DNA of 64,000 nucleotides, from positions 1,019 through 65,018 of the forward strand of contig CAMZEU010000002.1 of NCBI GenBank assembly GCA_947305865.1, in the 5' to 3' direction. Source of the stretch: an uncultured Clostridia bacterium (GTDB lineage: Bacteria > Bacillota > Clostridia > Christensenellales > CAG-917). Within the stretch, counting starts at the first letter, position 1. Each line of letters opens with the position of its first letter. The notes under the pieces are model-generated. The model was not told the DNA's origin and ran no database searches. It was given only the letters and a program-made list of their open reading frames with translations. Positions 14,564 to 57,285 of this stretch are shown piece by piece. The position numbers and the translations under genes are program-made.

Positions 14564-14566
14564 GAT

Positions 14567-15862: not shown

Positions 15863-15918
15863 CAAAACAATATAGTTAAAATACTAAAAATAAATAGATA
15901 AAATACCGATATTGCAAA

Positions 15919-16560
15919 ATGAACGAAGAGAATACACAAGCTATTGAAACAGTAGAAACATCATCCGAGGGGAAACCTTTAGAGGTGATTTCTGTATCTG
16001 TTGACTCAACAGAAAAAAAGAAAAGAGTCGCATTAGTTTTCTCTTTCATTTGGACAATTATTTCGATTATTTATTCCATAACAATGACGGCTTATTTGAT
16101 GAGCCAGAACTGGGTATCTACAACATTTACTATTGTTCTTTCAGTATTGCTTGTATTCTTTATCCTTATAGTTCTTGTTTTAACAGGCTTATTCTTTACA
16201 GATATGAATAAGTTCAAAGACAATGGGAAAGGGTTAAAGATAGTTGGATTTTTGATTAAGTTATTTAAGGCTGGATTAAATATTACCTTCGTTGCTCTTA
16301 CTATTATCGCCATTGCTGGTATGTCTTACAATGGTGTTGATACAATTAAGAAATGGGCTGTTCTTCTTGCAACATTATTTGTGGCTGTTATTAAACTCGT
16401 ATTGGTTGTTGTAACATTCTTTGCTCCTAAGATTATTAAGAGGAAGTTCTCAAAAGGTACATATAGCAAGACTACATTTGTTAACGGAAAGAAGAATGAA
16501 AAGAAACATAAGAAAACTAATAAACTTTTACAGAAACTTACCGAGTGGAGTTCAAAATAA
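15919..16560 (+). CDS. hypothetical membrane protein (4 TM helices, Lys-rich C-terminal tail)
   Basis: 213-aa ORF with hydrophobic helices, tail KKNEKKHKKTNKLLQK, and a terminator immediately downstream. Confidence 0.55.
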   Translation: MNEENTQAIETVETSSEGKPLEVISVSVDSTEKKKRVALVFSFIWTIISIIYSITMTAYLMSQNWVSTTFTIVLSVLLVFFILIVLVLTGLFFTDMNKFKDNGKGLKIVGFLIKLFKAGLNITFVALTIIAIAGMSYNGVDTIKKWAVLLATLFVAVIKLVLVVVTFFAPKIIKRKFSKGTYSKTTFVNGKKNEKKHKKTNKLLQKLTEWSSK

Positions 16561-23464: not shown

Positions 23465-23491
23465 GGCTACCTGAATAGGTGGCCTTTTTTT
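23465..23491 (+). terminator. intrinsic terminator isolating the giant gene from upstream transcription
   Basis: GGCTACC - TGAATA - GGTGGCC (23465-23484), followed by TTTTTTT (23485-23491). Confidence 0.7.
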
Positions 23492-23549: not shown

Positions 23550-23578
23550 TTGACTTATATAGTTTCTTATGCTAAAAT
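23550..23578 (+). promoter_or_regulatory. dedicated promoter of the giant ORF
   Basis: TTGACT (23550-23555), 17-nt spacer, extended -10 TGcTAAAAT (23570-23578). Confidence 0.6.
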
Positions 23579-23594
23579 AGTTTTAACTATTAAT

Positions 23595-23626
23595 GTGTAT
23601 ATACGTACGACGGCGTATATATACAC
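23595..23626 (+). promoter_or_regulatory. 5' UTR stem-loop abutting the SD of the giant ORF
   Basis: GTGTATATACG (23595-23605) - TACGACGG - CGTATATATACAC (23614-23626): 11 bp with a 2-nt bulge. GGAGG (23627-23631) and the ATG at 23636 follow immediately. Confidence 0.5.
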
Positions 23627-23635
23627 GGAGGAAAA

Positions 23636-23704
23636 ATGAAAAAACTTTATTTACTTTTAATCATCGTACTATTGATTACATGTTGCTGTACATTGTTTGC
23701 ATGT
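23636..23704 (+). other. Sec/SPII-type signal peptide with lipobox-like L-F-A-C (Cys23)
   Basis: MKK + LYLLLIIVLLITCCCTLFA + C, then NKKTNVEPQ. Positively charged n-region, hydrophobic h-region, Cys at +1 (codon 23702-23704). The -2 Phe is non-canonical, so this needs LipoP or SignalP. Confidence 0.6.
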
Positions 23705-26700
23705 AACAAGAAGACGAATGTTGAACCACAAGTTATTGTCGTGGACCCTATAACCCAGGATACCGCAGTCAATACAGTCTCAAGTGCTTATGCATGGGAA
23801 AAAGTCAAAAATGCAGCACTTAACACGAACACATCCACAGCTGGATTCTTAAACTTCAATACCATATTAGGTTTTGATTTCAAGAAGAATGGGAACGGAA
23901 ATAAATTCGTCCTCCAAGTTGCTGGATCCATCAATCAGGAGGACACGCCTAACTCAAGGATTTATATCGGGCTGGATAAAATCACTGTCGATAATGTCCA
24001 AAGCCGAGTTGCAGCGTTGTACTATGTAGATGGATGGTGCTATGCTGACTTCACGGGAGTTAAGAAAGGCGCAGAAATAGTTAAGACAGATAAGATTGAT
24101 TTAGCTTATTTCGCAGACAGAATTCACAACATGTTCGCAGGAACGAGTGTTGCGGATCTTTTCTATAATACACTCCTTGGATTAGACCTTGGTTCATTCA
24201 TAGATTTGATGTCAGGTCAAACATTAGATGGATTGCTAACAAGCATGTTGCTTCCAGAGACCATTGATATTATCGACCTTGGAAATGGTGAAGAACAAAT
24301 TAAGTTCCCATTCCAATTGGAAGACTTAATGGATATGGTTCTTGGTTTATTATCTGGTGTCTTGACAGATGATATTAAGGACTTGGTATTCCAAGTATTA
24401 GGATTAGACTTATCTAGAATCGATGCAATAGTTGGTAGCGAAGTTAAGGTAGTCTTAGATACAAAGATTAAGAACGGTGTTCTTAAGTCCTTAGAATTAC
24501 AACTTGATGCTCCTTTGGATTCTATAAAGACCGATACAGCCGGTACTTATGGATATTTCACAGAAGACATTTCACTCTCCGTCGGTGCTTTACAAATAAG
24601 CAAGGGTGTCGATCCTAACATCTACTTCAGTGATGAAGTTGGTGCAGAGGAAGATCCAGCATCTTATGTCCTCCTACCAGATGCTTTAAAAGAAGTCGCA
24701 AAAGAATATTCAGTATTAGACTTTGATATAACTCTTAATGCTGCAATTAATACATCAGAAAAGAAGATTACAATCCAAGACATAGATAGTGCTCTTGGTA
24801 AGCTTCTTTCAAATCTCTTAAATGAAACAATCCCAGCAAATTCTCCAATTTGGGGAACAAATATCAATTTGGCAACAACAAACTATGCTTTAACAATTGA
24901 TATTAAGGGAACTCTTAACTTAACAGACAATTCAAAGACCGAATTAGAAATCAAGCTTAGAGATGCTCTCTCAAGAGGCCCAGAAGAAAGAATGGCAATC
25001 TACTATGTAGGTGCGACAAAGACTCTTTATGTAGATATCTCTAACATTATTGGTGAACTTGGCCGTTATAAGATAACAGACTTAGATATCGCAGAAATAG
25101 TTAACGATGCTTTAAGTGGCATTAATATTAAGTCATTAATAGAAAATCTATTAAGTGGTATTGGTTCAAGTGAAGCTTTATCAGAAGCAGAAATTAGAAC
25201 ATACGAAGAATTATTAACAAAACTCGAAGACGGAACAATTCCTCTTAAGATTAGCCATGCTACAACAGCAAGTGGAACTGTAACCTCCGTTCTCGATTTA
25301 ATTATCGATATCGTTAATAGCATCAAGATTGAAAAAGAAGATGCTCCATATGACAATCTTTTGAACATCCGTTCATTGTTGATTTCTATTTCTAATGATG
25401 CAATTGACTATATTAGTGAATTAATCTTCCCAGCAACAAAGAAAGATGATGATGGCAATGAAATTGCAAACCCATTATATGGTTCTAAGTTGCCAATTGC
25501 TGGATTTGACATTAGTTACTATAACTACGGTGTTGCAAAAGAAAAATTAATTAACATTGACTTAAGATTAGGCGACGCACAAGGTATCTTTGATGGTATG
25601 TCAATTGGTATTGGCATTAATGCCAAGTTTGGAACAACCACTTGTGCAGCAAAGAGTACTATAAGTAGAATTGGAGACAGCAATTTTGTATCACTTGGTT
25701 CAATAGGTAAGTTGTCTGAAATCTCACAAGTACTTGAAAATATTAATCTCAAAAATATTTATCTCAAACTTGAAACACAAGTTGGATTCTATATTGCTCC
25801 AGGAACTTTGACAGATATTCAAGTAAACTCACTTGAAGATTATCTCATTAAGATTTTATTCGATATAGCAGATAAGGTTAATGCATCATTGTTATTAACA
25901 ATTGAAGCAAATCTTGATATTAGCGACGGATTGAATAGCATCTTGAATTCAGTTGCAAAGATTGAATTATATGATACATCCAAGACTATTCCAGAGACAG
26001 GTGAATACAAGAAGATTCTTGGTTTATACTTAGAAGATAAGGTTATCTACTTAGATGCTGAATCTATTGGTTTAAATAAGATTTGTGTTGATATCTCATC
26101 GTTTGTAGGTGATTTATTCAAGAAAGATGAAGAAGCATCTTCAGCTTCAGATGCACTTACAGCAGCAGATGATGGCGGATTTGATTTTATTGGTCTTATC
26201 GCAGCAATCCTTGGCGATGTAACAGTAAGCAGAGATTATATTGAATTAGGCTTGGCAACAAACTTAATTAGCAAGGTATTTGAAGCATTAGGCGTAGATA
26301 TTAGCAATATTCTCACTGTTTCATTATTTGATGCAGATGGAAGTGGTGGATTAAGAATCACATTCAAAGATGGTCTTGATTTATCACAATTAGAGATTAA
26401 ATTGTTCGCAACACTTAATAACCAACTCGAACTAAATTTAACAATTGGTGGTTTCGATATGGCTATTAACAGTGATACATTACACGTAGACAACAAAGAT
26501 GAATTCATTGACATCTTCATGGCTCCATATGTATGGCTTGACGTTGAAGGTGGTATGTCTATTAAGATTAGCGAAGCTACTTTAGACCTTTCACAAAACG
26601 AAATGATTACAAACGCAATGGCTGAAGCAGGATATGATGTTGCTGATTTATCATCATCTGCAATTCAAATTCTTGAAGCTATTGACGTTGAGTATGATAT

Positions 26701-29700
26701 GAAGATACAAGCAAGTATCGATTTATGGCCATTGATTTCTTATTTAAATGGCGATAAGGATATATATACAGATAAGAACAATTCACAATTATTACTTGAA
26801 ATTGAAAAGATTTCACAAAGCTTGGATCGTAAGTTATTAATTGGTCTCTACTATATTGGTGGTGTATTGTATCTCGATGCAACCAACTTTGGTATTGATA
26901 GAGTAGCAATTAATATTGACTTGTTAGAATTAGTTATTAACCTTATCCTTAAGGATAAATATGTTGAAATTAAGGGCGATGATTTGAAACCTGTAGCAGA
27001 AGGCGGATATGCAGGACCAAGATATGTTGAGTCCAAAGATGCAGATGGAAATAGTGTTTATACAAGAGATGATGAAAACGGAACATTCAAGTATATCTTA
27101 GATACTATTAGAATCAACCCATCATCCGAGGCATCCTCTGCAGGTGATCCAGATCCACAATTAACACCAGTAGAGAAGCAAAAATTAGCTATTGTTATTC
27201 AAGCTGAAATTTCTTCTACTGCATTTATGGTTAAGTTGGTAGATGGTTTAACTCAAATCTTAAATGAAAAATTAGGTCTCGACTTACCAGGTATTGCATT
27301 ATGGTTAAAACTTGCTATTGCACCAGATTATGTTGAAGATGCAAATGGAATTTATAGATTTGTTGAAGACAAGAATGGTGAATACTTTGTAAATAATAAG
27401 TATGGCAACTTTGTTGTTGCAGAACCAAGCTTTACAGGTACAAAATACAAGAAGATGCCAAACTTCTTATCAAAACTTGGCGTTTCAGCACACTTCGGTA
27501 TTCTCGATGAAAATGGTGATGATGATAATGGTATTGATGTATCAATTAGTAAGTTAGAATTACAAATTGGAGAATTGAAACAAGTTGCTGCAGATAATGT
27601 AACTAATAATGCAGATAAATATGAAACAATTACTCTACTTGACGAAAATAATAACATAGCTATTGAACAAGCATTTATTGAGTTAACAGGTGCTATTAAT
27701 CTTTCTGCTCAAGGAACAAACGGTGGCTATGAAGATTGGACTGTTGGTGATTGGATTTCAGCAGTAGTTTCTCAAGATTCAAAGACAATTCAATCTATTT
27801 TACATGGATTATTAGTAAGAATTGGTGTTAACCACAACATTAGTACAACAATTGGATTTAGAATTGCACTTCTTGCGAGATTCAATTGGGAAAATGGATT
27901 TGATATCAACTATGTATTATCTCACTCTGATTTGAGAATTGAGTTATACAAAGGTGAATATGTTGCTGGTGGTAACAATACCAACTTGATTACACTCTCA
28001 CTTCTTTACCAAGGAGACGTTGCAGGTGTTCCTTCAAGCACATTATTCTTAGAATCAGATTTACAAATCATCCAAAATACAAAGATTTATTTGGATGGAA
28101 TTAATCTTGTAACATTACTCGGTTTAGATAAATCTAAAGAAGAAGAAAATGCCGAACCAGAACAAACAGCAACACCAGCTCCTTCAACAGATCCAGCCCC
28201 ATCTACAGATGAACAAACATCATCCGAAGAAGAAAGTGGTGGTCTCTTAAGTGGACTTACAGGTAAAGGCGGTATATTAAGTGATATCCCAGCATTACTC
28301 AACAGCACAATTTATTCTGTAACAGCAAGTATGGATGAAATCAAGATTTCATTCGCAAAGAATCTTGCTGCATTCATTGTTTCTCTCATTGTTGGAGATG
28401 GCAATGACCAATACATCGAATTAGATGATGGTGAATTAAATACTGTTGGATTAGAAGATCGTTATGCTGTTGTTTATGTAGCAGACGATTATGGTAACTT
28501 CTATCAACATACAAATGGAAATTATTACAAGATTAAAGATGCAACATTTGATGGACAAAGATATGAACCTAGATTTGTATCTCTTGCAAATAATCTCTAC
28601 AAGAAAGTTGATGATACATACACATTACTCACAGCTGAAGAATTATACACATATTCTGGAGATAGATATTTTGAATATGCAGGAAATAAAGTAAAGTTTG
28701 TCGGAAATTATTATAAGTTCACTGTAAGTGATGAAGGCACAGACTATACAATTACAAATATTCAAGGTTTTGCAACTCCATTAACAGCAGCTGAAGAATC
28801 TGATGTATTTAAAGGAACAAGATATAGAGCAGATTATATTGCTTTAGCAAATAACTTCTATACAAAATCAGGAAACAATTACGCTTTAATAGAGAATATT
28901 TATACATTCTCTGGTGAAGCATATTACAAGATTGGTGATGAATATACATTATTCGATGGAACATACTACAAACTCCAAAGTGATGGTTCATATGCAGTAA
29001 TTTCAGATGAAGATAGAAAGACATTCGATGGCGCTCTCTATGCTGTAAATTATGTAAAGGATAACAATGGAACATACAAGTATGTTTATGCAATGTATGA
29101 TTACATTGACCAAGATGATGGCTCAAGATATAAGTGGTTAAAGGACTTCTTCCCAATTAATCCAGAAGACAGCTTCCTCTCATTAGAATGGGCTAATACA
29201 TATCGTCTTGAATTCAGCTTAGGTATTACTCCAGTCGCTCTTGGATTAGAACTTTCCAAGATTAGACTCTCTCTAAGTGATACAGCATCCGTATTGGAAT
29301 CACCAATTAATAAAGCAGAATATAACAATGTTCTCGACTTTGAAGATTTAACAATTAGTGCTGCAATAGAAATTAACTTCTCACTCGCAGAAGCCAGTGA
29401 AGATAACCCATATGCAATTGGCGATTATATTTCAGTATTCCTTGCAGAATTGGCATTAAAGTTCGGTATCACAGTTGAAAGCGAAATCGGTGTAAACTGG
29501 GAATTAAGACTTGATGCAAACCTTAACACAAAGGATTCTACAAAAGCTCAAATCTTATTAGAATTAAGAGATATTGAAAAGAGCAAGATGATACTTGGTA
29601 TCTACCTTGTAAACAGCAACTTATATGTTGATATGGGATTCCTTTCTGATTATGACTTTGTAATTGAAGGAACCAACTTCGCAGTATTATTAACAAATGT

Positions 29701-32700
29701 TTTGAACCAAGTCCTTGGTGGAATGGGTATCTCATTTGGTGGAACAGAATCTGAGGCTACAACAGCAGCAGAGACAAATTCTGTTGATGCAGGAATTATT
29801 CTCAATCTTGCAGAAAGAGACATTCAATTAAAGATTACCGAAGCTGTAATATTCGCAATCATTAGTGCAGTCATTGGAACAGGTGATGCAAGCAATGCTG
29901 TAGATTTATTACAACAACTTGGTTTGAAGTTATCTATTGACTTAGACTTAGATTTAAGAAATGTTGCTCTTGCTCTCAAGATTGATTCATCAATCTTAGA
30001 TCCAAAGAACTCTATTTCAGAAGTAGATATCAATGGAAACACAGTATACACAACAGAAGTTTATAGAGACTTCTTCAACATGGAATTAAATATTGTTGCA
30101 CCAAAGATTTCATTTGCTCCAACAGATGCAGATATCGCAGCAATTAAAGAATCCATTGAAAAGGCAATTTATACTGGAATTCTTCTTGTTGAATTAACAG
30201 ATGAAGAAAAAGATCATGGCTATGGTAAATGGGTAAAAGAACCTGTATTATTAAGTCCTAAAACTGACTATGTTGTTGGTAATCCAATTGTAGGTACATA
30301 CTATACAATGTTTGATGGATATTTCTATCCTGCAAGTGGTTACTTCAAGGCTGAAGAACATTACTATAGAATAGATGAAACAACCAATAAGACAGAGGCT
30401 ATTTATAAACTCTTAACAGCACGTGGATTTGGTCAAACAGTTGATGAAGAATTTGATTTTGATAGATTCGATGTATTCAATAATAATCCAATCTTAAGCT
30501 TTGACCTCGACTTATTCGTTGACTTATTCGTTTCAACAACATTCAAATATGAAGGAGAAAAGGCTAAGAACTATAGCCCATCACAAAGATATACAAAGAG
30601 ATTATCTGATGGAAGATTTGTTCAAGATGATGATGGCTTATATGTACAACAAACATTAAGCATGGATGAATTACTTGATGCACTTGTTAGCTTGCCATTC
30701 GTACAAAACTTAATTGTTTCATTGGAAAACAATGAGTCTGTTGGCGAAATTCTTGGACCTGTAGTTTCATCTCTTGCAAAGCAATTATCATTCCAAGCAT
30801 TGTATCAAGCACCATTGGATCTCAATATTGTTCTTTCAATCAAAGGTAACATAGATTTAGGTGTCTTGGGTATCTCATCACTTCTCACAACAGGTGATTT
30901 GGGAGAATTGAACTTTGATATTCAAACATTATTAAGTGCTATTAACCTTGGTATCGAAATTTCATTCAATAAGGGTGATAGTAAGAGCAAGATAGGAATT
31001 TACCTTGTAAATGGTAATCTCGTTATTGATTTAAGCGATTTATCTGGCCCAACAATCAAGGCAAGCTTATTTGATATTCTCTCAATGTTTGATGTAGATG
31101 CCTCAACAATTCTTAACAATAGCGAGGCAACAACATCTGCAGACGAAGAAGAATCAACAATTGAAAAAGTAGCAAGAATACTTAATGGCATTGTAGATGC
31201 AGTTATCTTTGAGACTGGAACACAAACAATCCCATTCTTAAATGAATCCTACAGCACATTAGACGATGTCAAGATTAGATTTAATAAGAATATTGTTGCA
31301 AACTTACTTGAATTGATATTCAAGATACCATTTAAAGCTGAAGGATATGAATTAGACGAATCAAATAGTGGATTATACTTATTCTTCCATGATTCAAGAT
31401 TTGCTAATGATCCAACATTAGTTAATTCAGAAGGTATCAATCCATTCAAGGGTTGGGCACTAGAGGTTGAAGCTTCATTATCTAATGGCATGTATTTCGA
31501 CATGGCAACAGGTATTGGTGCAACAATTAGAATAGGAAAAGAAGCAAAAGAATTATTATCTCAAGAAAATCTTAATGCTGCTGTTGAAATTACAGACTAT
31601 CTTGAAAACTTGTTCGGTACATTTGGCTTAATTGATAAAGTCGGAACATATGTAACAGTTTCTACATACGAGAGTGAATATGTAGATGCACAAGATAGAA
31701 TTGATCCTACAAGCCGTTATAACAAGGTTGTAGATGGATATACACAAGTAGGTGGATTAGTTGGTGAATATGTATTACTCGTTGGCGAAGAAGACTACAT
31801 AAGCGCAAAACGTTTCTTACCTCTCAACCAATATGCAATTTACTTTGAAAATGGCGTTGTAGCAGATGTAGATAATACACTTCGTTATACAAGAACAGAA
31901 GTAAAAGAAGGCGAACAAACAGTTGGTTATACATATGAACAAAATTCAGCTGGCGAATATGTATTATATGCAACACAAAAGCATGTATTAAAGAGCTTAT
32001 ATCTAAAAGCTAACGACATTGAAACATTGCCACAAACAATGGCAACATTCAATCCAACATATAAATATGTCCAAAATAATGAAGGTGATTTCGTCTTCAT
32101 TAAGGAAGGAGAATACATTTCCGCAAAGGACTATGCTAAGTATCTTGGACAAGAAAGAGTTGCTGCATTGGTTCGTTATGACAGAGAACCTGTTTATGCA
32201 CAAAGCAATGTTGGTGAATTTGTTAAGTTAGTAGATGAATATATGCCTGTTGCTGCATACATTGCATTTACAAACGTTGTAGATGTACCAAAAGAAATTA
32301 GATATAACCGTGAAGATGGTAAGTATGTACAAAAGGATGATGGTTCATTAGTCCACATTGATGTACTCTATGTAAATATCACAAGATATTGTCTCCTCAA
32401 CGGTGTTACAGAAGATTCCATTGACAGAAGAACAAGATACAACTTTGATGGATATAGATATTCACGTGATGATGAAAATGGTGAATATGTAAGAGCAGAA
32501 AGCCTTGAATATAATGGAATAGATGAAAGAGGTATTGTTGTTGATTATAACCTCTATTCAACAGTAGTTGCTGATACAGCACGTTATAGATATATCAAGA
32601 CAGTTGTTACACAAAACAACCAAGGTGAATATGTCAAGTTGCCAAAAGGAACAATCATTTCACTAGAAGATTACGCATATTATACAGGTACAGCTATTGC

Positions 32701-35700
32701 TGATATCCCACTCTCAATCAGAATCAATGCTGATGAAGAGCCAGATCAAAACGGAACAAGAGTAAAGACTACATCTGAAATGATAGTAACACTTGCTCAA
32801 TATTGCGTAAGAAATTCAATCTCCGATGCAAACATTGACTCAATGGTACCTATTTCAATTCGTGCAGCTGTAAAAGAAGTATACGATGTATGGGCAGATG
32901 AAGATGGTGATGGATATAAAGATTGGACAGATTCTGATAATGATGGAAAAGATGATAAGACTGGAATAGCAGTTACAACAAAGTATACTCTTGCAGATTA
33001 TCCATATACATTCATCCCAGCAGAATATTCTTCACAAAATATTTATCTCTCATTGAATGCAAGATTATTCTTCGAAACAGTTGATAAGAAGAGTGTAAAT
33101 ATTGGTGGATTATTAACCAATTGGTTAGGTGATGCAATTATTGAATTAACATCAGGTAACATCTTCAAAGATGGTATTGGTGCAAGAATTGCAATTAACC
33201 TTGATATTGCATCCTTAGATTTAAGCAATGGTTTGAACAGCATCTTGAATTCAGACTTCAGTAATATTGAAATTGGACTTGAGTTACTTGAAACAGATGA
33301 AAATGGACAAATTATTGTTGACGAATATGGTAACACAAAGCAAAAAGGTGGATTATATCTCTACCATGGTACACTCTACTTAGATGGTATGGGAATCTTC
33401 CCAGATGCAAATCAATATTCATATATTCCTAACTTCATGGAATTAATCCAAAATGTTATCAATTATGATTTCTCATTCCAAGAATTAATTGATGGAATTT
33501 CCAATGAAATTGGATTAGGAACAACATCTGCAGAATCTTCTACAAGCAGTGAAGAAGATAGAAATGCAATCCTTGAATTATTGACAACAGATACTTCAGT
33601 TCAACTTGTATTAACCAAGTCATTAATTGCAGTAATTATTGCAGCTCTCCTTCCAGAAGTTGGTTCTGTTGCAGAAGTATTCGATCAATTCTCATTAACA
33701 TTAGGAATTGACTTCGGTTCTTCTAACTACAAGATGTTCTCAGATTGGAGATATAGAGATGTAAATGGTGGCGTTTATGAATCAGATGCTAAATACTACA
33801 ATGTTGAATATACAACATTAGTTGAAGGTACTGATTATAATGTAGGTGATATCATTAGTGTAGTTGCCTATACAAAGCCAGGTAGCGAATATATCCCAGC
33901 ATATGGATGCTTCGAAACATCAACAACATACTATACATTAAGAAAGACTGCTCTCACAGTTGGATTAGATTATCAACTTGAGACTTCAATCAATAGTGGA
34001 GTATATGAATTAGTAAGCACAGAAACGGCTCTTGATTATGTATTAGATGACATAGCTGGTTCAAAACAAAGATATGCAATTTCAGATGTACAAAAGACAA
34101 CATATACTGACGTTGCAGCATTTACTGCAAAAGCAGGTTATGTATTAGGTGAAGATGCCAACGGATATAAGATCTTCTCATATTTGACACAAGCACAAAT
34201 TCACAACATTATCACAAATAAGGGTAGTGTAGATGTTTATAGACTTACATTTGTTGAAAATAATGCTGGTCTTTATATGTATGTAGAAGATGATTTTGGA
34301 CAATACTATGCATGTATTCTTCCATTATCTGAACGTTATACATACCATTCTTCAATTGATTATGAATTAACAAATGGCTTCGATGAAGGAAATGAATCTC
34401 GTATCCCAACAGATATTCAATCTGAATATGTGGATGTAGTTAAAGTTGCATCACAACAAGGTCAATTTGCTAGAGCATATGTTGAAAATAGATGGTTATA
34501 TGTTGATACAGAAAGATATCCATTAATGTATTCATTTAATGGTGAGAAGTTCTACAAGAATGCATCTGATTTCTATGATTTATATAACACAACACCTGGA
34601 TTCAGTTATACAGAAGGATTAAGCATGATTGTTAATACAACAACCAAGGAATCCTACACATATGTTTACTACTACAACAACTACTATGTAGTTTCTGGCT
34701 TATACAACAAGTTAACTGGATACACAACAGATTCAAAGGGTGTTTACTATAGTAAATTACACGTATTCACAAATATTTATGAATATGGTGTAACACTTGC
34801 ATTTGATATCAATGGTGTTCATGCTGGTTTAACAATTAATGGTCTTAAGATTGACTTCGGTGCAGGCCACTCAATCTTGCCACAACGTATTATTAAACAA
34901 CAAACAGAAGGAACATATACACTTGGCATTAGGTACAAGGAAATATATGGTCAAGCTGCATATGACGCAGTACAAAAGAAAGATAAGTACAAATTAACAA
35001 AATATGGATATGTACAAGATGACTATGGCAACTATATCCGTCATGATTATGAATATTGCCCACTTGTAATATTCTACGATAGCACAATCGAATTATCATT
35101 CTCAGTTGAATTAGAATTATCAATTGACGAAGGTAAGATTGATATTGGACCATTATTTGAAGATCTCTTAGGAGACTTAGATGGTGTTTCAATTGAAATC
35201 CCAGCAACAACAAAGGGTTATTCTTCAGCTCACTTCCGTCTTGATGCAAGCTTAAAGATTGATATGTACGATTTGTCCAACTCAGAATTGGTAATGGAAT
35301 TATACTCAATTGGTATCACAGGTTATGAGACATTATGGCTTGGTGTTTACTACATTGCAGACGTAATTTATATCAATGCTGCAGTTCTTGGTTTACCAAA
35401 GATGTCAATCACAAGCTTTGGTATTATGACATATCTTAATACAATTCTTAAAGACATTATTGGTGAGTTCTATAATGAGAATGTATTACCAGATGCAGAA
35501 GATTCATCTTCTGAAGCTGGAATTGCTTCTGATGCTATAACAGCTAATACTGCAAACGGTGAAATAGACGTATCAGTATTGTTTGATAGAAGAACATTAA
35601 GTGTTCAAGTCGCAAACACATTCATTCGTTGGGCACTTGGTTTAGTTGTAATTGATAAGGATTCTGGATTAACAATCGCAGACTTAGTATCACAACACTT

Positions 35701-38700
35701 AATTGCTGGTGTTGGACTTGATATGAGACTCGAAGATGGATTCAACCTTGATCTCAACGTTGCTCTTGGATTCAAGGGTGATAGATTCACAATTATCAGA
35801 GAAGACCAAGAAGAATTAGCTAAGAACAAGTTCTATGCATTCGACAGAAATGAACTTGGTGATTATGTATTAGAAGACGGTGTATTAAGAGTTATTAAGC
35901 CATCCGAAAAGGTTGACGCACTTTCTCGTTATACACTCAATGAAAACACAACATTAGTAGAAGGAAAGAAGAAGGTCTACTTCGATACATATGCTGAAGC
36001 AGAAGCAGCAGGAAATTATGTTGCATATCTCTCAGCAGCTAAGTCCGAAGCTAACATGGAAGAATATGATATGAACCTTGATTTATATGTTGGAATCAAG
36101 AACCTCAATATCGCATTCAACTCCGTACATGAATTCAAACTAACAGCAGAAGACATTGGCGAATACAGTGAAGTAGGTGAATTAGAACATATTTCATTAC
36201 AAGAAGTTATCGATATTACAACATTGTTCAAGGCTGATTCAAATATTGACTTAGCAGAAATATTGACATACTTCTTCCCAGAAGTTGATGCAGATTCAAT
36301 TATTGCTGAAATTACAGCAGAATCTGACTCACATGGAGACATCCATAGAATCATTGAAGCTGAAATCAATATGGATATTAAGATTGCTGCTCTTATGAAC
36401 TACTTCAGACAAGTATTCACAATGGGTACAGCAAACTTCAATTCAGACTTCTCAATCTCTGACTTAATCTCAATCATTAAGGCAGTATTGAACAAAGATG
36501 ATAACCTCAATGTATATCAAATTCTTGACGATGTACTTTCATATATCAATACATCTGTTGTTATCCGTACAAGATGTGGATATGATGAATTAACAGGTCA
36601 ATACACAGATACACACAACTGGATTTCAATCTTCTTTGTTGGTGGTGAATTTGAATTGTTACAAGAAAACAACTTTGGTGTATATGGATACAGAGATGAC
36701 AAGACTACATTCGTAGATAAAGAACATCGTTATAGCCATTACTTCAAGGCGGCAGATAACAATGGACCATATTACTACAATGCAGATACAAAGAAATATG
36801 ATCTCATCACAGAAAACTTCGAAGAAGATGTAGACACATATTATTATGATTCAACATATTGTTATCTCAATGAAAATGGTGAATATTATCGTCACAATGG
36901 TGGCTTGTATGTTGATTTGAGTTACTTCAATATACCATCTCTCTACTTACAAAGCACATCAATCGAACACTTATTCGAATCATTATCATTAAATGATACA
37001 ATTAACGGATTACTTGGTGGTTCAGAAGCATCTACACCAGAAGAAAAAGTTGTTGCATCAACAGAGAGTGATGCTACAGCTGCTGTTTCATTCCCACTCT
37101 TGAATGAAGAAGTTTCTGGTTATATCCGTGCATTCTTATATGGATTAAAGATAACATCACAATTAACATCAGTTATTGTTCAACCAGACTACATCAACCA
37201 AATCTTGAAGTTAGTCATGGGAGAAGATGGTGCAATTAAGTTCAGTTACCTTGATAACCAAGAATATAAGTATGATAAAGACGGAAACGTACAACATGCT
37301 TCGTCATTAACAATTTATGCAGACCGTTCAGCATATAACTTCATTACATCTTCTTATGCATTTGCAAGTGAGATTAATGATTCTAATGCAAGATTCCTTG
37401 CAACATATAATCAAGAAGAAGGTCAATACATAATTAACCCAATTGATTATATTATTACAATGGCTGAATTTACTGCAGAATTTGGCACAACATTTACCAC
37501 AGATCCAGTAACAGCTGAAATTTCCAACCCAGAGGTTGATAGAAGATTTGAAAATGCTCCTATTAGATGTGACTCTATTGGAAATCCAGATGTAGATGGT
37601 GACCATGTCAAGTTTACACGTTATGAATATCAAGAGAAGAAGAATTTAAGCGAAGCCGAATTAGACTACTATGTAGCAGCTAATGGATTATTCTTCGATG
37701 TTGATATGACAGATACTTATGTATATGTTGGCAATGGATTCACATACTTCGGACAAGCAGAACCTGATGCAAGTACAACAGGAATATTCAATGACTATAC
37801 TTCAAACTTTGCATACTTCTACGGAATCGTAGGAAATGAATATGTCAAGTTGACTCTTAAGGACAATAGATATCTCTATATTGGATCTTCAGATACCCCA
37901 TACACAGGAGTTGATGTATATGTTTCATCTGGTAAGATGTCTAAGTTGAGCAAAGTTACAAAGACAGAACGTAGATATACATATACTGATGTTGAGACTT
38001 ACTATACACCAGTTAAGTTTACAACAGGTGACTGGGTACTCCAAAGCGATGGTTCTTATAAACTTTATGCAGGAATGTCAATCGTAGAACAAAGTGAAGT
38101 TGATGCTAATGATAGATATAATATGATGCCAATGTATCTCACTGGAAGTGTTGTTGAAGTATCCACAGATACATGGCAAAAATATAGATACAGAACACTT
38201 GTTAATAGTGAGTATGATTCAATTGTTAACCATGGTCGAATCTATGTTGACGGTGTAAAGAGATATATGGATATGATCATATTCACTGAGAATATGGCAT
38301 ATGTAACATATCAGGCCAAAACGACTGTAGATGGTCCTGTACGTACTATGTATATTCCAGAGATGATGAACAATCTCTTGATTAGACCAACAACATATAC
38401 TCCAGTTTCTGTAACTGCTGCTGAAATTATAGCAAAAGCAAAGATTGGAACAGATTATTGCTTCTATGGATATGACTTAAAGAAGTATGAATTTGTAGCC
38501 TTAGCATGGGATACAACAAATAATTATTGGTATCTCTCAACAGATACTGAACATACAAGATATACTGGTGCATTATATATGCTCAGTATCCATGATGAAT
38601 ACAACCCAATCATAACCATTCCAGCATCTAATGTTAAGAATGATTCATTGATGTCATTACAACTTTATCTCTGGGAACACACAATTACAATTGATATCAA

Positions 38701-41700
38701 TGTTCCAAAGATTGATGCTGTAGACTTCACATATCTCACAAAGACAGATTATGAAGCAATTAATGGACCTGATTCAGCACCTAAGGCAGCTCTCTTCTCA
38801 AGAGAACCACAATATATTTACACGCCAATTGACCCAGTAAGCTTCACATATGATAATACAGAAGAATACTTCTTCATTAACCAAGGTGAATATTACGAGT
38901 TAAGCGATGCATCCATTTATACATATGGTGGTGGTACTTATACATTAGTTGGTACAAACGACTTCACACATGGTGATGCATGGGATATCAAGTACTACAT
39001 TGGAATTCCAGAAGAAGATCCAACAATCTATAAGCTAGTTGAAAAGAAGAAAGTTTACACACGTGCTATTAGCAAGTATGTATATACAAAGGATGAAAGT
39101 GGTGAATATGTAAGAGTTAAGATTGATTCATCTGTAACATATAGCAGATTTGCATATTCCAAGATTTCAGAAGATGAATTCGTAAATGGATATATTGCAG
39201 CAGCTGCAAACTATGTATATGATGCAAACACATACTCATACGTAGTATCCACAGATCCAAGTGCAACATTAACATATAAAGATATCTTATTTGTATATGA
39301 TGAAACAACATATCATTATGTATCCATAAGAGATTATGAAGCAGAACATAGTGGTTATGATTTCACATCAACAACAATTTACAAAGCAAGAGGAATCGAA
39401 TATGTAAGTACAGATGATGTATATTACATCTCCTTGTCATTAGATGGCTCAATGTACATGAATTCAGCTAAGGTTTATAAGAACCTTGCAGACTTTGCTA
39501 CAAGCAAGAAGTCAAGTATGTACAACTCTAAGACAATTTGGAAGAAAGATTCTGTTGCTATTGAAAATGCAAATGGTATCTATGTAAAGGTTATAGATAA
39601 TTATTATGGTGCTGGTGATGGTTATTATATGCCTGTAAATTCATATAAGGCATTAACAGATAAACCAGTAACTGATGGTAAGTTCTATAACTTAAGAGCA
39701 CAAGCAGGCAATTATGTTCGTGCAACAGATGGTAACTGGTATTGTGCAGACAATAACCCAGCAGCAAATGGACACAACATCATTGATATGCTTTATTCAG
39801 AAGACTTAATCGTAGATACAGATGATATCTACGTATTCCAACAAGGTGGATATGCAAAACTTGGTTCAGTCTTAGATAAGAAAGATTATGTAAAGACACA
39901 CGAAAGCACACAATACTACTTAATGTATTCATCTGGTGCAACAAGCACATTGAATAAGGTATTAAGTGGAATAGTTGGTGATTTGGGTACAGAATTAGAC
40001 TTTACATCTGAATTATCTGGAGAAATCGAATTCAAGATTACACTCTCCTATGGTGGAACATTACTTCTCGGTACAAACGAAGAAACTGGAGAATTCCAAT
40101 TTGGTTTAGATGTATTCAACCTCGAACTTGCAATTGATACATGGAGAAGAACAAACCACGTTGATGATAATACATTAACACACGTATTTGGACTTTACTA
40201 TGACAGAGATGATTCAGTAGGTAAGAGCGGATTATACTTAGACTTAAGCTACTTCTTGAACGAAGAAGCAAAGGTTTACATTGATCTCTCAGATTGCCCA
40301 TTAGAAGACTTCATCAACTCTAAACTCTATTATGAGAAGGTTGAAACATACTACGAAGCAACAGCAGCAAGTGAAGATACAGATGCTACAACAGCTTCCA
40401 GCACAGTACTTTCTGGCGGAAATATGACAGCAGCATACTTCAATATCTACACATCTGCATTTGGTCTCTCAGTAACATCCGGATTCTTGAAGGTATTATT
40501 GAACAACCTTATCACAGGATTTGAACAATATGCAGGATATATTCCAAATATTGAAATCTTCATTAAGGGTGAACTTGATCCATACAGATTAGCTGTAGGC
40601 TTAACACTTGATGATGACGAAGGCAATGCATTAGTTGAAGCTGGTGTAAGACTCAATGGTATTACAGGTGACTATAATACAGGTACTGTATTAGACTTTG
40701 GTAGCTTGGCAAAATATGATAGCATTGATATGACATCAAGAGATTATATCTTCTACTATGGCAACTTCGTACGTGTAGATAAACTTGGAACAGTATCTTC
40801 ATATGATTCATCAGTTCAATACTATGGTAAAGATGGAGAAAGAAAAGGCTATGTCACAATTGCATCAGACAACTATGGTGTAGCTGGTTCTTGGTATTAC
40901 ACAGAAGATGGTATCGAGGCAGTAAGTGGCGCAAGATATAATAATAAGGTATATACAAGATCTAATAAGATTAGAGTAAATGAAGATTATAAACAAGCAT
41001 TGAAGTTAATTGAAACAAATACTTATGCAAGTTATAACTTCAAGGAAAGCAAAGATGAAAATGATGATGTCATTGACTTCTACGGATTAGTAAATGGCAA
41101 CTTCATTAAAGTTGATTACGATGTATATAACCTTGTTACAGATAACACTGGATTATGGTATTACACCTTAGATAACGAGTCTGCATGTAAGCTTGCTGAA
41201 TCCAGATTCAGAGGAGAAGTTTACTTTAGAACAACTGCATATGGTGAAGAGAACTACGAAACAATCAGCGTAAAATACAATAAGACAATCCAAGGATGGC
41301 AATATGTAAAATACGATGCATATGGCAACGAAATTACAGATGCATATGGCAACGTAATGTATTATTCATATCCAGGAGATGTCACATTCGTATATTCTGG
41401 AGCACTTTATAGAGTAACACCAGTATACGGAGTAGTTGATGGAGTAGAATCTCAATTAACTTATGATGCAGTAAATGGATGGCTCTATGCTGGTAATCCA
41501 TATGATGGTGAAATTTACAAGAAAGATGAAGCAGGTCTTGCAACTATGGATTATGTCAAGATTATGGGACTCAACCTCGAAGATATGTTCGCAGAGGGAT
41601 TCAGTCTTGATAACCTTGATTTAGGTGCATTACTTGGCGATCTCAAGTCATTTGAGCTTGGTCTCAACATTGATTTCCAATTAACATTTGCTGATATCAT

Positions 41701-44700
41701 TAGCTTCACAGAGCAAATGAGCACATTCATTGGAAAAGACTTCAACTTCATCGCAACATCATTAACAAAGCAAGGATATAGCTTCGATACAGTATTTGAT
41801 ATTTCAATCGAGTTAAAGGCATATCTTGATCTTGCAAGATTAGTAAGTGGATTAACTTCTACATCAGGCGACAAAGATATTCTTTCAATGCTCGTTGGAA
41901 CAACAATTTATGCAAAGATTGGATTGAAGTCCACATATCTTGCAACATATAACCCAGAACAATTAACAGACTGGGATGCAACAACAATTATCTTAATGGC
42001 TAACTTGACAGAAGATAATGATAGCAACGTATTGTTGAACCTCTATCTCGACCTCTCAGACTTGTCCAGACAATTCCCAGCATTAGGTGACGTATTTGAC
42101 AAAGTCAAGTATGAAGGATTGAATCTCACAAAGATTATAGGTTCTACATCCGCTGAATCAGCAATTGCACGTGATTCTGTTGCAACATCTGCAGCATTAG
42201 AACTCAATACAGCTGATGCAGGTGATGTTGATATGGGATTACTTGGAACATTCGATGCAGGCGCAACAATCTACTCATTACTTGATGCTCTTGTTGGCAG
42301 AGTAATGATTACAAACGATATGCTTTCAATTGGATTCAAGGAAACATTACTTGGTTCAATCGTTGAAATGATTTCTTCAAGATTAACAGATGAAGAAAAA
42401 TCCAAGTTACCAACATTAAGAGTAACAAACGGCAAAGATACTTCTGGTATCACATTAGACTTCAACGATGATGGACATATCGCATTGTATGCTGTTATAG
42501 GTATTGAATCTGGTATTCTTTCATACAGCAATGATTCTGCATATACACCATTAAGTGACGTCAAGTATGCATTTGATGATAAGACAGGTAAGTATTATGT
42601 TGCTCCAGCTGCAACTGGAAAGAATACAAACGTAATGCTCAGTGATGGTGAGTACTCATTAGTTGAATATGTAGACAAACTTGACAGATGGGCACTTCAA
42701 TCATACGTTGCACTTACTGCAGAAGAAAAGGCAATTAGAGCAGCTGTTTATACAACAGATGATGGCATCAACTATACACAAAGAGAATATAATGGAAACA
42801 ACGGCTTAACATATTACAAGTATGTTGGTGGAAATTATGTTGAACTCAGATATGCAGATAAGTTATTACTTGAAAAGAAGTTATATACATTATCCGCTTC
42901 AGTTTACACTGAATACACTGGTGTAGTTGATCCAGCTAATACATACTATGTAGAAACAGGCAACTTCACATACACAATGGTTCCACGTTATATAGCAATA
43001 ACAAATGCAGAAAGAGCAATTCTTGAAGCAACATTGTATACAAAGTCTGGAAACAACTATGTAGTAGAGACAGGCGCATTCGATGCAACAAAGACATACT
43101 ATATTGATTCAGGTATCAACAAAGTTGAATTAACAGCGGAACAAAGATTAATTCTCTTAAAGGCAACATTCACAACTACAAACGGTACAACATTTGTTGA
43201 AACAGCATTTGATAAGACAGATGAAACAACAACATATTACTTCTTAGATAGTTATGAAATGATAAGAGAAATTGATGGCAATGGTTCATATCTCTATCTT
43301 GGTTACTACAACATTGAATTAAAGGCTTCTAACATTTATGCAAGAATTAATAAAGATTTCAGTGTTGATGACAAAATAGACAAAGATGGAATCCACTATG
43401 AAGTATATAAGGATATCACAAAACTCACATTGAACCTCAATATTGAATTTGATATCTCATTATATGGCAATAGTGATCCAGGAATCACAGGAAACGACAA
43501 CGTTGTTGACTTAAGTCAAATTCTCAACCTCGTAGCAAACCTCATTAACAATGAGGACATTGTTGAGGCATTTGAAGGTGCAGAGTTATACACAAGATTC
43601 AAGGGTGATATTGGTAGCGACAGCAACCCAACATATAACTTATCACTCAACGTCTTTATAGACATTGCAGACTTCAAGAACTTACAAGCAACAATTGAAC
43701 TCAAGCAATACAAGAAACTTGGTCCTGGTGAAGCATTCACAGGCGAGTTCATGCCAAACCCAGTATTAAGTGCATACTTATTCAATGACAACATCTATGT
43801 TGATGCACACGGTTTACTTGGTGATGCAGGGTTGATTTCAATTGATAACCTTGGTCTTGCTAAGTTACTTGATACAATAGAGATTGCTGGAACAAAACTT
43901 GGAACATTCCTTGGACATGATATGTCAGCTTATGAAGATAAGAGCAGTGGAGAAGCTACAACAGCTGCTCATGTAATGGATAATGTTGAAGATGTATCAA
44001 CAGTATTCGGCACAGCTGCTTACTTACTCATGACAACATTCCCAAGACAATTCTTCATCCAACTCAACTCTGCAGCAGTTAATGCAATCATTAACAGAAT
44101 TAGAGAAGCACAAGGCAAAGCAAATTCCGATTACTTACCAGACATCGGTGCATTACTTATATCTTTTGATTCTGATAATACTGATGAAATACTATATACT
44201 AATATATATGCTAAAGTAACAGATAGCTTCTATCTTGCACTTGAAGCAAAGAAGGTAACATGGAGCAGAGAGAAACAACCATGTGAATTCAATATTGATT
44301 CTATATTACAAGTTTCATCATACACATCATCTAACACAATCTTCACATCTGGTAGCGACAAGCAATATTACAGATATGAAAAGGCAACATATATTGCATT
44401 AACAGATGAACAAGCAGCACAATTAAGTGCAAATGGAACAATCATCTATAAGAACTATACAGGTGATGCAAATAGACCAGCATTCATTGCTAAGTCAGAT
44501 ATCAACTTTGTAAAAGTTGGTAATAACTATGAATATAGCAGTACTGGTACTCCAATTTACATGACACCTGTTAAGTACGAAAGTGCAGCGAACTACACAT
44601 ACTTCAGATATCAACAAGACAACTATATCGAAATCCCAATGTATAAAGGAGATAGATATAAGCTTGTTGGTTCAACATATGAACTTGATCCAAAGGGTAC

Positions 44701-47700
44701 ATATTACTATGATAAAGAAGAAGAAATATATAAGACATTAGTTGGTGGTACTCTCGAACAAGTTAAAGCAGGTACAGCACATTATCAAAATAACTACACT
44801 GGTACAATTTATGAGAGCAGATTCCAAAGTGTATATGATATTGGAACAGGCGACATCAAGCTTGAAACATTGAGCTTAAGTGTAACAGGTGAGTTGAACC
44901 TTACATCCGACGGAATCGTAAAGGGACAAACAAATTACGATAAGACATTCTCTTACTGGATTGCTAAATTCCTTGCGGATTTACTTGGAGAATCAGATCT
45001 TGCTGGTGGTATTCTCAAGGGTATTACAGCAGATAAGATTTCACTCATCTTCCCACAAAAGACAATTAACGTTGTTATCAACATTATGGCTGATGTCAAT
45101 ATTCCAGCAATTGTTAAGTATGGTATCTCTGGTATTCTTTATAGTGATATCTACTTACAACTCATTGAAGGTGCTCCAATTAACAAGACCTTCATGGAAA
45201 TATACTATCTTGGTTCTTCAAGATTAACACAAACTGGTAACATCTATACATTGTCACCAAATGGAACAATCTTCTCAGATTGTATCTACCTCAACCTTGA
45301 AGGTTTAGGATTAGGCTCTATCGCATTCCACGGCTTAACAGGAATACTTGGAGCAAAACAACCAGATTATGTAACAGCATCTACAACTGCAGAAACAGAG
45401 GCATCTGAGGCCGTCACAAGTGCAGCTTCAAGCTCATTGTATCTTGAACTTGGTATTGAACATGGTGGATTCTCACTCAAGCTTGAAAAGAGTGTTATCG
45501 ACTTCGCATTAGGATTACTTGATCTTGATATAGATTTAAGTGAGATGCCATTACAATACATCGAATTAGAAAGCAGATATTCATTAGATGTTGGTGTATC
45601 TGATTTATCAATAACAGCAGTTCTTGACTCTGTTGGAACAATGCTTGGTATCAAGCTTGGTAACTTTGATATCAGCTTCTCAGAAAGAAAACTCGACCTT
45701 GAAGCAAAGATTGCAGCATGTCAATATGGCTCAGCTGGTATCACATATTCAAAGGTAGCAGGTATTGGTGCATTACTACAAAATGTAATTGACTCACTCA
45801 ATGTTGGATTAACAATTCACATTGATAGAAAAGTTGATACTATTAACTTAACAACACTTTCATGGTTCACATGGAAAGGTAGAAGAGACAATAGATACAC
45901 ATCAGTTACATTGAATGGTATCAAGACGAAGAGTTCAATAGACGCAGAACCAGCATCATACAAGTTGAAGTTCAGTATTAGTGCATTACATCCATCTGCA
46001 GCTTCAAGCCCAATGACAGCAAACCTTTACTTCTACAATAATGACTTAGTATTAGGTGGATTCGATTTACAAACAACAATTGCTGATATCTTAGGAAACT
46101 TCTTAAAGAAGATTGACTTAGGTAGTGGTAAACCAATGTTTGAATTCGCTAACGTAATGGGTGCAGATACTGCTGAATATACATATCCAAGCAGCACAAC
46201 AACAGATCCTGCAAAGGATACAACAACTTCAGCTGCAGACCAATACAAGAATGGTAACTATAAGTATGCAGCAAACCTTGAAGGATTAATTGCTGGATTA
46301 GAATTAGACTTCTGTACATCCAACAACTATCATCCATACTATTCAGGAATGGGAACAATCGATGGAAGCGCTGCAACAGATATGAAGTATGTTTCAGTAC
46401 ATATTGAATTTGGTAAGCAAGCATTTAACGAATTGTTAATATTCTTATATACAACAGTTCTTAGCTTATTACAAGGTAAGGAAGGCGAAGAGAGCAAGGG
46501 TATTGATACAAGCTCTAACTGGGCGGATAGCGATGATGCATACTTTGTAAAAATGTCTGCATTCAGTTGGACTTCAGATGGTGAAGGTAGTGAATCACAA
46601 CTTGATAGTAACGTAGATAGCACTTACGGTGTATCTGGTGGCTTGGCAAAGATGTTCGAACATATTGATTCTCTTACAACAACAGCTGCAAGAGTAAACT
46701 TCTTAGAGCCAATCATTAAGTCAATACCAGTTGCATTGTTACGTACAATTCTTTATAACGTTGCAGGTGTAAGTGCTACATTGATTTCTCTTGCAGGTAC
46801 AGTAGCAGGTGGCACACTTGGTAACTTCTGTAGATTAGTTGGTGCTATCTTACCATTACCATTTGCAAGCATGAGCAGTTCAGTTGCAAATCCATCTGCA
46901 CATATCTACATTGATTTGGATCCAGATCCATCTGTATATAACCGTTCAGGATACACAATGCATCCAGGTGTACAAGCAATTGAGTTATACATCAATGCAC
47001 AAAAGGTAGTACTTGGAAGCCCAGCAAACAGCTTAAACGGCACACAAATCTACACATGGGGTGGCTACAGCTCATACAGAGGAGCAACTGACACATCAAC
47101 TCAAACAAAATACACAATTCCAAGTCTTGGCAATGGTGTAACAAATATGAGCAATACACAACAAATGTTGGTATTGAGAATAGACCCATACTCAACAGAA
47201 AGTAATTCTATCACAAGTCCATTACTTGGATTTGACGAAGCAGATGCTGCATCTCTCATCGGTACAGCACCATCTGAGATTTACATTACAGATCCAGCTA
47301 ATAGAAGTGGTTATGTAAAGGTTGGTAGTTCAAGTCAAGACTTTGTATTAAATGCAACAGCATTCCAAGACACATCTATCTTCCCAGCAAAGGCTAACGT
47401 AACATTCACCAATGGTGAACCAAGTTCAGATACTGGTGGCACAGTAGTTGTTTGGGATGCAGGTGGTGTAGACTTCACACCATATGAAGGTGAAATTGGC
47501 GAGAAGTTCGCAGGTTATGTATATGGATATGCACTCAACATCTGTGTTGCAGCAGTTCCTGTATATGTAACAAATGACTATGGATTCAAGTCAATTAAGG
47601 CATATAAATATGATGGAAGCACATGGAAGACAGAAGCTATCACACGTGATATGCAAAGCAATGTAGACGACCTCCCAGATATGGTCAAGATTTCATTCCA

Positions 47701-54966: not shown

Positions 54967-54990
54967 CCTCCCCGTGTAAAAGCGGGGAGG
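54967..54990 (+). promoter_or_regulatory. GC-rich hairpin 30 nt after the giant ORF stop that includes the SD of the next gene
   Basis: CCTCCCCG (54967-54974) - TGTAAAAG - CGGGGAGG (54983-54990). No U-tract on the plus strand; an A-run lies upstream. The right arm is the only SD-like sequence before ATG 55002. Confidence 0.5.
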
Positions 54991-55001
54991 TGTACATTAA
55001 A

Positions 55002-56078: not shown

Positions 56079-56158
56079 TAAATAAACAATTGTGAAATTG
56101 TTTAGCAAGTGGTATAATATATGCTGACAAATCATATATTATTAAGGAGAAACATATT

Positions 56159-57280: not shown

Positions 57281-57285
57281 TTAAT

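Follow-up and report, generated by a model that had tools for sequence, protein, structure and literature searches.

We analysed a 64,000-nucleotide stretch of contig CAMZEU010000002.1 from an uncultured Clostridia bacterium (the window, ~34% G+C, to whose numbering all coordinates refer), in which a single giant open reading frame (ORF) occupies positions 23636..54937 of the plus strand, comprises 10,433 codons and a stop codon, and remains open across 31.3 kb; all features of this gene given below lie on the plus strand. The upstream gene carries a terminator-like hairpin (23465-23484); after it comes a promoter-like site, TTGACT-17-TAAAAT with a TG extension (23550..23578), which is recognized by consensus match only, and the presumed 5' untranslated region (UTR) contains a hairpin with a 13-bp stem (23594..23625) that ends immediately 5' of the strong ribosome-binding site GGAGG (23626-23630). 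This hairpin folds at −15.2 kcal/mol (z = −4.84), a stability equalled by none of 200 shuffled sequences, and may be a regulatory element of the 5' UTR of the giant gene. The ORF opens with a signal peptide that includes a lipobox (23636..23704, read from the sequence), MKKLYLLLIIVLLITCCCTLFA followed by Cys23. At the level of motifs, MKK-LYLLLIIVLLITCCCT-LFA-C fits a lipoprotein signal with a basic n-region, a hydrophobic h-region and a lipobox L-x-[AGS]-C, and this signal peptide supplies the most hydrophobic 19-mer of the giant protein. A preliminary description of this DNA had called the product a lipid-anchored protein from a Bacillota-type genome. Both parts of that claim are borne out: the lipobox is kept, reading LFAC here and LVAC at the equivalent place in the orthologue P0001, and the relatives are metagenome-assembled genomes (MAGs) of Clostridia or Christensenella, the source organism being nearest to genomes that carry the label Christensenella or Clostridia bacterium.

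The preliminary description had further proposed that the first ~7,500 residues are built from at least 15 copies of a degenerate repeat of four parts in fixed order: a block of alternating hydrophobic and polar residues with a conserved core (A), an acidic linker (B), a strand and amphipathic-helix block (C), and a Tyr-rich insert of variable length (D). Its coordinates were accurate, with 16 of 16 peptide examples and seven of seven further copy positions exact and in frame, and the two segments encoding GLNSILNS (25928-25951 and 33230-33253) are identical at 22 of 24 nt. A relaxed core pattern matched the protein eight times, compared with 0.09 matches expected from 200 shuffles. Self-BLAST of the giant protein retrieved only a few, weak unit pairs (E 1e-7 to 1e-3), and profiles were therefore required to define the units. 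A hidden Markov model (HMM) seeded with eight copies and iterated inside the giant protein alone found 11 units and missed units 5, 12 and 14. To avoid circularity, the unit HMM was rebuilt in four rounds from 125 relatives, leaving out the giant protein and close fragments at least 50% identical to it. This relatives-only model detected significant repeats, namely 14 units at i-Evalues of 1.3e-9 to 5e-40 with unit 10 split by an insert, and when alignments of orthologues were compared with the unit profile (profile-profile comparison), the six units tested all scored probabilities of 97-99.7%. The modules are ~250 residues long and together account for 4,134 of the first ~7,400 residues; in alignments, the paralogous units are 10-23% identical to each other. 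The claim that distant copies are homologous is upheld: a model trained on relatives detects them, and those relatives share the units and their order. The claimed count stands for 14 copies and is doubtful for the 15th (46016, residue 7461), which is not significant. At this site LYFYNNDLVL aligns with the core and stays in register through the tail and linker (hhalign P 0.083), and one orthologue sequence only (found both as locus L012 and as protein P0007) reaches 4.5e-6 with the unit HMM. The corresponding segment (approximately residues 7437-7540, 45944..46255), which contains no more than the core, the tail and a Thr/Ser-rich linker, amounts to a degenerate half unit at most.

The array begins with unit 1 (residues 50-316, 23783..24583; i-Evalue 1.3e-9, hhalign 98.5%), the A block of which is truncated N-terminally, followed by unit 2 (residues 360-676, 24713..25663; 1.2e-25) and unit 3 (residues 706-956, 25751..26503; 1e-33). 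Unit 4 (residues 965-1328, 26528..27619; 8.6e-23) carries a ~70-aa insert in its linker and is covered by orthologues, and the core is degenerate in unit 5 (residues 1347-1635, 27674..28540; 2.8e-16, hhalign 99.1%). Units 6 (residues 1903-2141, 29342..30058; 9.6e-36), 7 (residues 2358-2653, 30707..31594; 3.5e-23) and 8 (residues 3134-3399, 33035..33832; 8.5e-29) lead to unit 9 (residues 3816-4067, 35081..35836; 5e-40), which was the unit modelled singly. The insert that splits unit 10 (residues 4184-4601, 36185..37438; hhalign 97.1%) separates its A block from its core, giving i-Evalues of 0.038 for the N-terminal and 1.5e-13 for the C-terminal part. The remaining copies are unit 11 (residues 5422-5673, 39899..40654; 8.5e-23), unit 12 (residues 6004-6310, 41645..42565; 7e-13, hhalign 97.5%), unit 13 (residues 6595-6880, 43418..44275; 7.9e-24) and unit 14 (residues 7077-7406, 44864..45853; 1.3e-16, hhalign 98.4%).

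The anatomy of the module was derived from a consensus of 564 family units and from AlphaFold2 models of unit 9 alone and of 791 residues spanning units 2 and 3 and the A block of unit 4. The unit 9 model has a mean predicted local distance difference test score (pLDDT) of 75.6, with values of 82-97 across its first 120 residues (the A block), and the 791-residue model shows the same elements recurring at lower confidence (pLDDT 67). Family consensus and unit 9 model agree on the order of elements, and both recover the proposed order of parts A to D. Each unit starts with an alternating strand of 14 residues and a short amphipathic helix; three or four further long alternating strands then finish in a hairpin LLGIYY-x3-LYLD (in general form G-x-Y-Y...L-Y-x-D); an 18-residue amphipathic helix follows, corresponding to what had been described as a hydrophobic tail. 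Next come a ~30-residue disordered loop rich in Ala, Ser, Thr and acidic residues, a short strand pair with a 10-residue helix, and two more 9-residue strands, after which the variable insert begins. In the unit 9 model the strands span residues 2-15, 48-61, 69-77, 83-92 and 95-99, the long helix residues 115-132 and the disordered loop residues 133-164, and there are additional short strands, two helices of 8-10 residues and one of 4 residues. The three longer helices (8, 18 and 10 residues) display an LLxxLLxxL pattern in model and consensus, and the C-block segments (Kyte-Doolittle 1.5-2.15) are exceeded in 19-mer hydrophobicity only by the signal peptide. On account of this LLxxLL-type pattern and of the C-block hydrophobicity, the amphipathic helices probably pack on, and cover, the hydrophobic face of the sheet.

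The preliminary description had offered two folds for these strands, a beta-solenoid or beta-helix fibre and a groove of the TamB/AsmA/VPS13 type. Beta-solenoids consist of short parallel strands in regular coils of ~18-25 residues. Assignment of secondary structure by DSSP on both models returned strands of 9-15 residues with tight turns, three or four helices per unit and no ~20-residue periodicity, which contradicts the first option. A unit of a repeating beta-groove (RBG) protein comprises five antiparallel strands and a loop that often starts with a helix; the modelled succession, in which about five long strands precede a helix and a disordered loop, is reminiscent of it. Positive evidence for the groove was not found, with no Pfam match and no convincingly superposing PDB chain among the matches listed, and the helices, the host lineage and the large inserts that separate units all make it less likely.

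Searches for known families returned little throughout. At E-values up to 1, Pfam gave no family for the whole giant protein other than a sub-threshold EF-hand_1 match (E 0.011), and for 51 unit sequences it gave one-off chance matches only (best E 0.02, no family recurring in a second sequence); AsmA, AsmA_2, TamB (DUF490) and Chorein_N were absent from both sets of results, and so were known solenoid families. Pfam likewise detected no Ig-like or adhesin repeat domain in the giant protein, Big_x, FIVAR and Cna_B included. NCBIfam had no match to the first 8,000 residues, and neither database reported an enzymatic or transport domain anywhere in the giant protein. Sequence searches of the PDB were likewise negative, with no match at E up to 10 for the unit and multi-unit profiles and none below E 0.6 for the junction profile, the C-terminal region and one Tyr-rich insert. 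In Foldseek searches against the PDB, the 791-residue model reached E-values down to 7e-6, yet template modelling (TM) scores did not exceed 0.11 and the root-mean-square deviation (rmsd) was ~28 Å among the matches listed; the best E-value of the unit model was 0.18, with TM-scores of at most 0.29 among the matches listed. Matches to TbpB, DDB1 and hotdog dehydratases were dropped on TM-score and rmsd. No entry for an RBG protein, TamB, VPS13, ATG2, pertactin or FHA appeared among the 50 Foldseek matches listed for each of these moderate-confidence models, and a search of viral structures (BFVD) with the unit model gave no usable match. The literature likewise yielded no description of this repeat family, and both module and protein family appear undescribed.

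Relatives came to light through profile methods. Word-indexed homologue searches yielded nothing useful (none for a single unit, one fragment for the unit profile and one for the junction profile), and an exhaustive HMM search was therefore needed. HMMER with the unit profile against 1.84 billion cluster representatives retrieved 133 relatives, 19 of them below 1e-30 and many of them collinear lipoproteins, 5.6-7.9 kaa in length with 8-13 unit matches. These derive mainly from Logan assemblies and from a few NCBI MAGs, and their names are uninformative bar one, 'carboxypeptidase-like regulatory domain-containing protein' at NCBI. The orthologue P0001 (7,286 aa) is collinear with the giant protein from lipobox to C-terminus at 24-36% identity, the main differences being the larger Tyr-rich inserts and longer C-terminal part of the giant protein. 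A scan of one genome per GTDB species added 22 loci, nearly all in Clostridia, Christensenella or Bacillota MAGs, several of which take their names from samples of rumen, gut or rabbit. The junction region of a MAG from water-buffalo rumen reaches 85% identity. Nearly all 22 loci hold the same five to seven units ahead of the junction in unchanged order, which indicates that the repeat array is old and positionally conserved rather than the product of a recent expansion. In one locus (L009, CP091723.1, a complete 1.65-Mb Christensenella sp. MAG) the orthologous frame is broken at about locus position 8783, unlike in the other 21, which may reflect a long-read frameshift error or a genuine split or pseudogene. 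Two contigs that carry the giant gene with Clostridia-type downstream synteny (L002 and L006) were deposited as 'uncultured Bacteroidaceae' and 'Bacteroides sp.' MAGs, and are probably mis-binned rather than evidence of transfer to Bacteroidota.

Selection on the gene was estimated against a rumen relative (L001), to which the giant protein is 77% identical across 6,265 aa with 52 gap positions only. By the Nei-Gojobori method, the ratio of non-synonymous to synonymous substitution rates (dN/dS) was 0.22 for the whole aligned protein, 0.145 for the units, 0.205 for the Tyr-rich inserts and 0.275 for the C-terminal ~2,400 aa, compared with 0.05 and 0.12 for two downstream genes. These values imply a functional gene in which the modules are the most constrained part and the C-terminus the least.

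Between the units lie gaps of 8-820 aa, and the description of part D as Tyr-rich and variable in length holds: the eight gaps longer than 100 aa contain 7.4-13.5% Tyr (10.2-13.5% in six of them) compared with 4.5% within units. The largest insert (820 aa, 11.5% Tyr; 37439..39898) has a dN/dS of 0.25 against L001, and another of 480 aa (10.2% Tyr; 31595..33034), which is missing from P0001, contains internal tandem modules with the motif D/N-x-x-G-E-Y-V. This motif occurs 19 times in the giant protein compared with 1.75 expected. Tandem duplications within inserts relate residues 1638-1695 to 1725-1780 (E 2.7e-9; 28547-28975), 2709-2931 to 2859-3069 (31760-32842) and 6357-6414 to 6452-6509 (42704-43162), and the inserts seem to grow through local duplication of hairpin-like modules of ~50 residues. 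An acidic loop, DEDGDGYKDWTDSDNDGKDDKTG, at approximately residues 3088-3110 (~32897-32965) resembles a calcium-binding site and is conserved in the fragment P0029.

Beyond the array, a junction (residues 7540-8000, 46253..47635) is 36-43% identical to orthologues and includes a hydrophobic LPLPFAS stretch. The best-conserved part of the giant protein lies here, at approximately residues 7693-7747 (46700-46880), with a ~50-residue hydrophobic stretch (...PVALLRTILYNVAGVSATLISLAGTVAGGTLGNFCRLVGAILPLPFAS) whose Kyte-Doolittle value is 1.59 over 19 residues; the motif LP[LI]PFAS is invariant in four orthologues. This stretch could be a buried core or an element that interacts with a membrane or a partner. 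The Ser/Thr-rich C-terminal region (~2,430 aa, residues 8001-10433, 47636..54934) is the fastest-evolving part, at 71% identity to L001. The motif [FIV]-[DN]-P-[YW] recurs in it at irregular spacings of ~100-350 residues (FNPYSSDD, FNPYWYKGED, FDPYTSNY, FDPWTTTNH, INPYDYQAP and VDPYAPLS are examples), and a single weak internal match pairs residues 9790-9866 with 10108-10170 (E 0.003), a pattern that suggests a second, different repeat array. A calcium-site-like acidic loop, DTNSNGKIDKAEFVSYIKS, lies at residues 8222-8240 (~48299-48355), where EF-hand_1 falls below the Pfam threshold (E 0.011).

We propose that the product of the gene is a giant stalk or adhesin on the cell surface of uncultured rumen and gut Clostridia, anchored through lipid and made of an apparently undescribed module, a reading to which we assign a probability of about one half. 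The nascent protein would be exported through the Sec pathway and lipidated on Cys23, holding its N-terminus at the outer face of the cytoplasmic membrane. From this anchor the 14 old, positionally conserved modules of ~250 aa would build a long stalk. Each would contribute an antiparallel meander of long strands running to the G-x-Y-Y...L-Y-x-D hairpin, an amphipathic helix and an acidic disordered loop, followed by one strand, a strongly hydrophobic helix and a further two or three strands; the helices would probably pack against the hydrophobic side of the sheet. Tyr-rich inserts, specific to lineages and 8-820 aa long, would separate the modules. The conserved junction (7,540-8,000) would then lead into the faster-evolving C-terminal region of ~2,400 aa as the likely distal binding part, and its targets may be glycans, particles, host surfaces or partner cells. 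We infer the surface location, the stalk geometry and the adhesive role. Besides the lipobox, the conserved units and the lack of any enzymatic or transport domain, the gene's own promoter-like site and strong GGAGG count in favour of this reading, and one relative (P0026) carries a Big_4 Ig-like domain close to its C-terminus, which fits an extracellular binding role. Several observations weigh on the other side. Pfam finds no adhesin, cell-wall-binding, SLH or sortase motif in the giant protein; confidence in both structure models is moderate (mean pLDDT 67 and 75.6, predicted TM-score ~0.5); the covering of the sheet by helices is deduced from sequence patterns only; and the C-block helices, given their hydrophobicity, may have a membrane- or lipid-interacting role.

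As the closest parallels in concept, giant surface proteins are known from other Bacillota with small genomes, for example Giant1-5 of Apilactobacillus kunkeei, and solenoid domains are predicted in such proteins (PMC12863079). The present protein resembles Ebh of Staphylococcus and Giant1-5 (PMC12863079) in being a multi-thousand-residue, presumably extracellular protein that takes up at least 1% of a small genome, and in its tandem modules, fast evolution, variable length and presumed elongated adhesive structure. It differs from them in that its module has no Pfam, NCBIfam or PDB match, its anchor is an N-terminal lipobox rather than an LPXTG motif or C-terminal transmembrane segment, and its modules are old and diverged (10-23% identity) whereas theirs are recent, near-identical tandem copies; a solenoid head domain was not found here. 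A lipid anchor and an all-beta, meander-rich build are shared with TbpB-type surface lipoproteins, the top Foldseek matches of the multi-unit model (E 7e-6, 3Di probability 0.77). TbpB has two lobes, each made of an eight-stranded barrel and a handle domain. No such barrel-plus-handle lobes are present here, the matches superpose poorly (TM-score 0.07-0.11, rmsd ~28 Å) and the unit model gives E >1, and in these models the resemblance is one of local strand geometry only.

The protein could instead be a structural part of an outer protein layer, S-layer-like or a spacer, in a thin-walled lineage with atypical Gram-negative staining, an envelope scaffold or coat with no adhesin function, which we regard as unlikely. 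Downstream of the gene follow, in order, a Mem_trans permease, an SPFH/Band7 protein with double zinc ribbons, a zinc-ribbon protein and a helix-turn-helix cupin regulator (54990-59132). This order is kept in the nine relatives with matching downstream genes (L001, L002, L003, L005, L006, L009, L013, L018 and L021) of 12 loci examined, and in each of the nine the giant gene is a single copy at the same locus, beside a membrane-scaffold pair (SPFH/zinc ribbon). The purifying selection on the stalk modules is fairly strong (dN/dS 0.145), and Christensenella minuta is reported among the Bacillota that stain Gram-negative without LpxABCD, LptA, OmpH or BamA (PMC11448272), both of which suit a structural layer. 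Against this, Pfam detects neither SLH nor other wall-binding domains, and the high variability of the inserts and C-terminus is easier to reconcile with an exposed interaction surface than with a lattice. The downstream neighbours are 44-92% identical, far better conserved than the giant protein, and their synteny could mark a functional link or may reflect conserved gene order in general. The idea that extreme gene length in metagenome-derived sequence betrays an assembly artefact or a decaying pseudogene, to which the interrupted frame in the long-read MAG L009 might be added, is effectively refuted by the frame unbroken across 31.3 kb, by intact collinear ORFs in ~20 independent assemblies and by the overall dN/dS of 0.22.

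The fold bears on two further explanations. As a bridge-like hydrophobic conduit, the protein would form a groove, or a lipid-binding chain of sheets around helices, along which lipids or other hydrophobic molecules move away from the anchoring membrane. The strict alternation of hydrophobic and polar residues in strands of 9-15 residues, the RBG-like A block of the unit model, the N-terminal membrane anchor, the very hydrophobic C-block segments and the atypical envelope of the lineage all accord with such a role, and the RBG lipid-transfer proteins, namely AsmA-like proteins, TamB and YhdP as well as the eukaryotic VPS13 and ATG2, share with the giant protein an anchored N-terminus, great length and repeated blocks of long, amphipathic antiparallel strands with a helix and a loop. 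Unlike in RBG proteins, helices are predicted on the sheet, where the three or four per unit are placed to fill the hydrophobic face, and inserts of up to 820 aa between units would break a continuous groove. Neither sequence nor Foldseek comparison revealed similarity to RBG proteins, in view of the absence of AsmA, TamB and Chorein families at E up to 1 in Pfam (protein and 51 units), of any PDB sequence match at E up to 10 (unit and multi-unit profiles) and of RBG, TamB and VPS13 entries from the 50 Foldseek matches listed per model, among which TM-scores stayed at or below 0.11 (multi-unit) and 0.29 (unit). The host lineage lacks a lipopolysaccharide outer membrane and is not expected to have a second membrane, and a partner outer-membrane protein is not known. 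It is quite improbable that the protein is such a conduit, and equally so that its 14 modules form an anchored chain binding hydrophobic cargo, or an RBG-analogous groove, that moves lipids or lipid-linked envelope precursors outward in Christensenellales-like Bacillota, whose cells stain Gram-negative and have no lipopolysaccharide outer membrane. A fibre with a beta-solenoid or beta-helix fold, as in pertactin, FHA or serine-rich-repeat proteins, is scarcely credible: it draws on an overall impression, that of a giant surface protein with amphipathic strands, and on the prediction of such domains in other giant Bacillota surface proteins (PMC12863079), whereas strands of up to 15 residues, tight turns, helices and the missing ~20-residue periodicity in both models, together with the absence of pertactin, FHA or any other beta-helix fibre from the 50 Foldseek matches listed per model, count against it.

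The other genes in the window form an ordinary chromosomal set of an anaerobic Bacillota, including NrdD with its activase, thioredoxin reductase, a MATE pump, an RsbU-type phosphatase, GH20, a GH127-like protein, a PIG-L deacetylase, MetRS, TatD and KsgA. A stand-alone 431-aa protein (14567-15862) has a weak match to the Condensation domain of non-ribosomal peptide synthetases (E 1e-8) and is surrounded by ORFs without Pfam matches (12904-16560).

Christensenellales-like Clostridia are widespread in gut and rumen, few of them have been cultured, and next to nothing is known of their cell surface. In a chromosome of 1.65 Mb, the size of the one complete relative, the giant gene would amount to ~2% of the sequence, and it has been kept intact and collinear across family-level divergence; its module is absent from Pfam, NCBIfam and the PDB. 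The module HMM allows hundreds of fragmentary 'hypothetical proteins' to be annotated, and the module offers a concrete target for structure determination. Should the conduit explanation prove true, the protein would show how an atypical Bacillota envelope is serviced and would represent a bridge-like transfer system that arose independently within monoderm bacteria, the Christensenellales-like Bacillota. As the lipid-anchored stalk or adhesin that we favour, it is a candidate means by which these bacteria attach to particles, hosts or partners.

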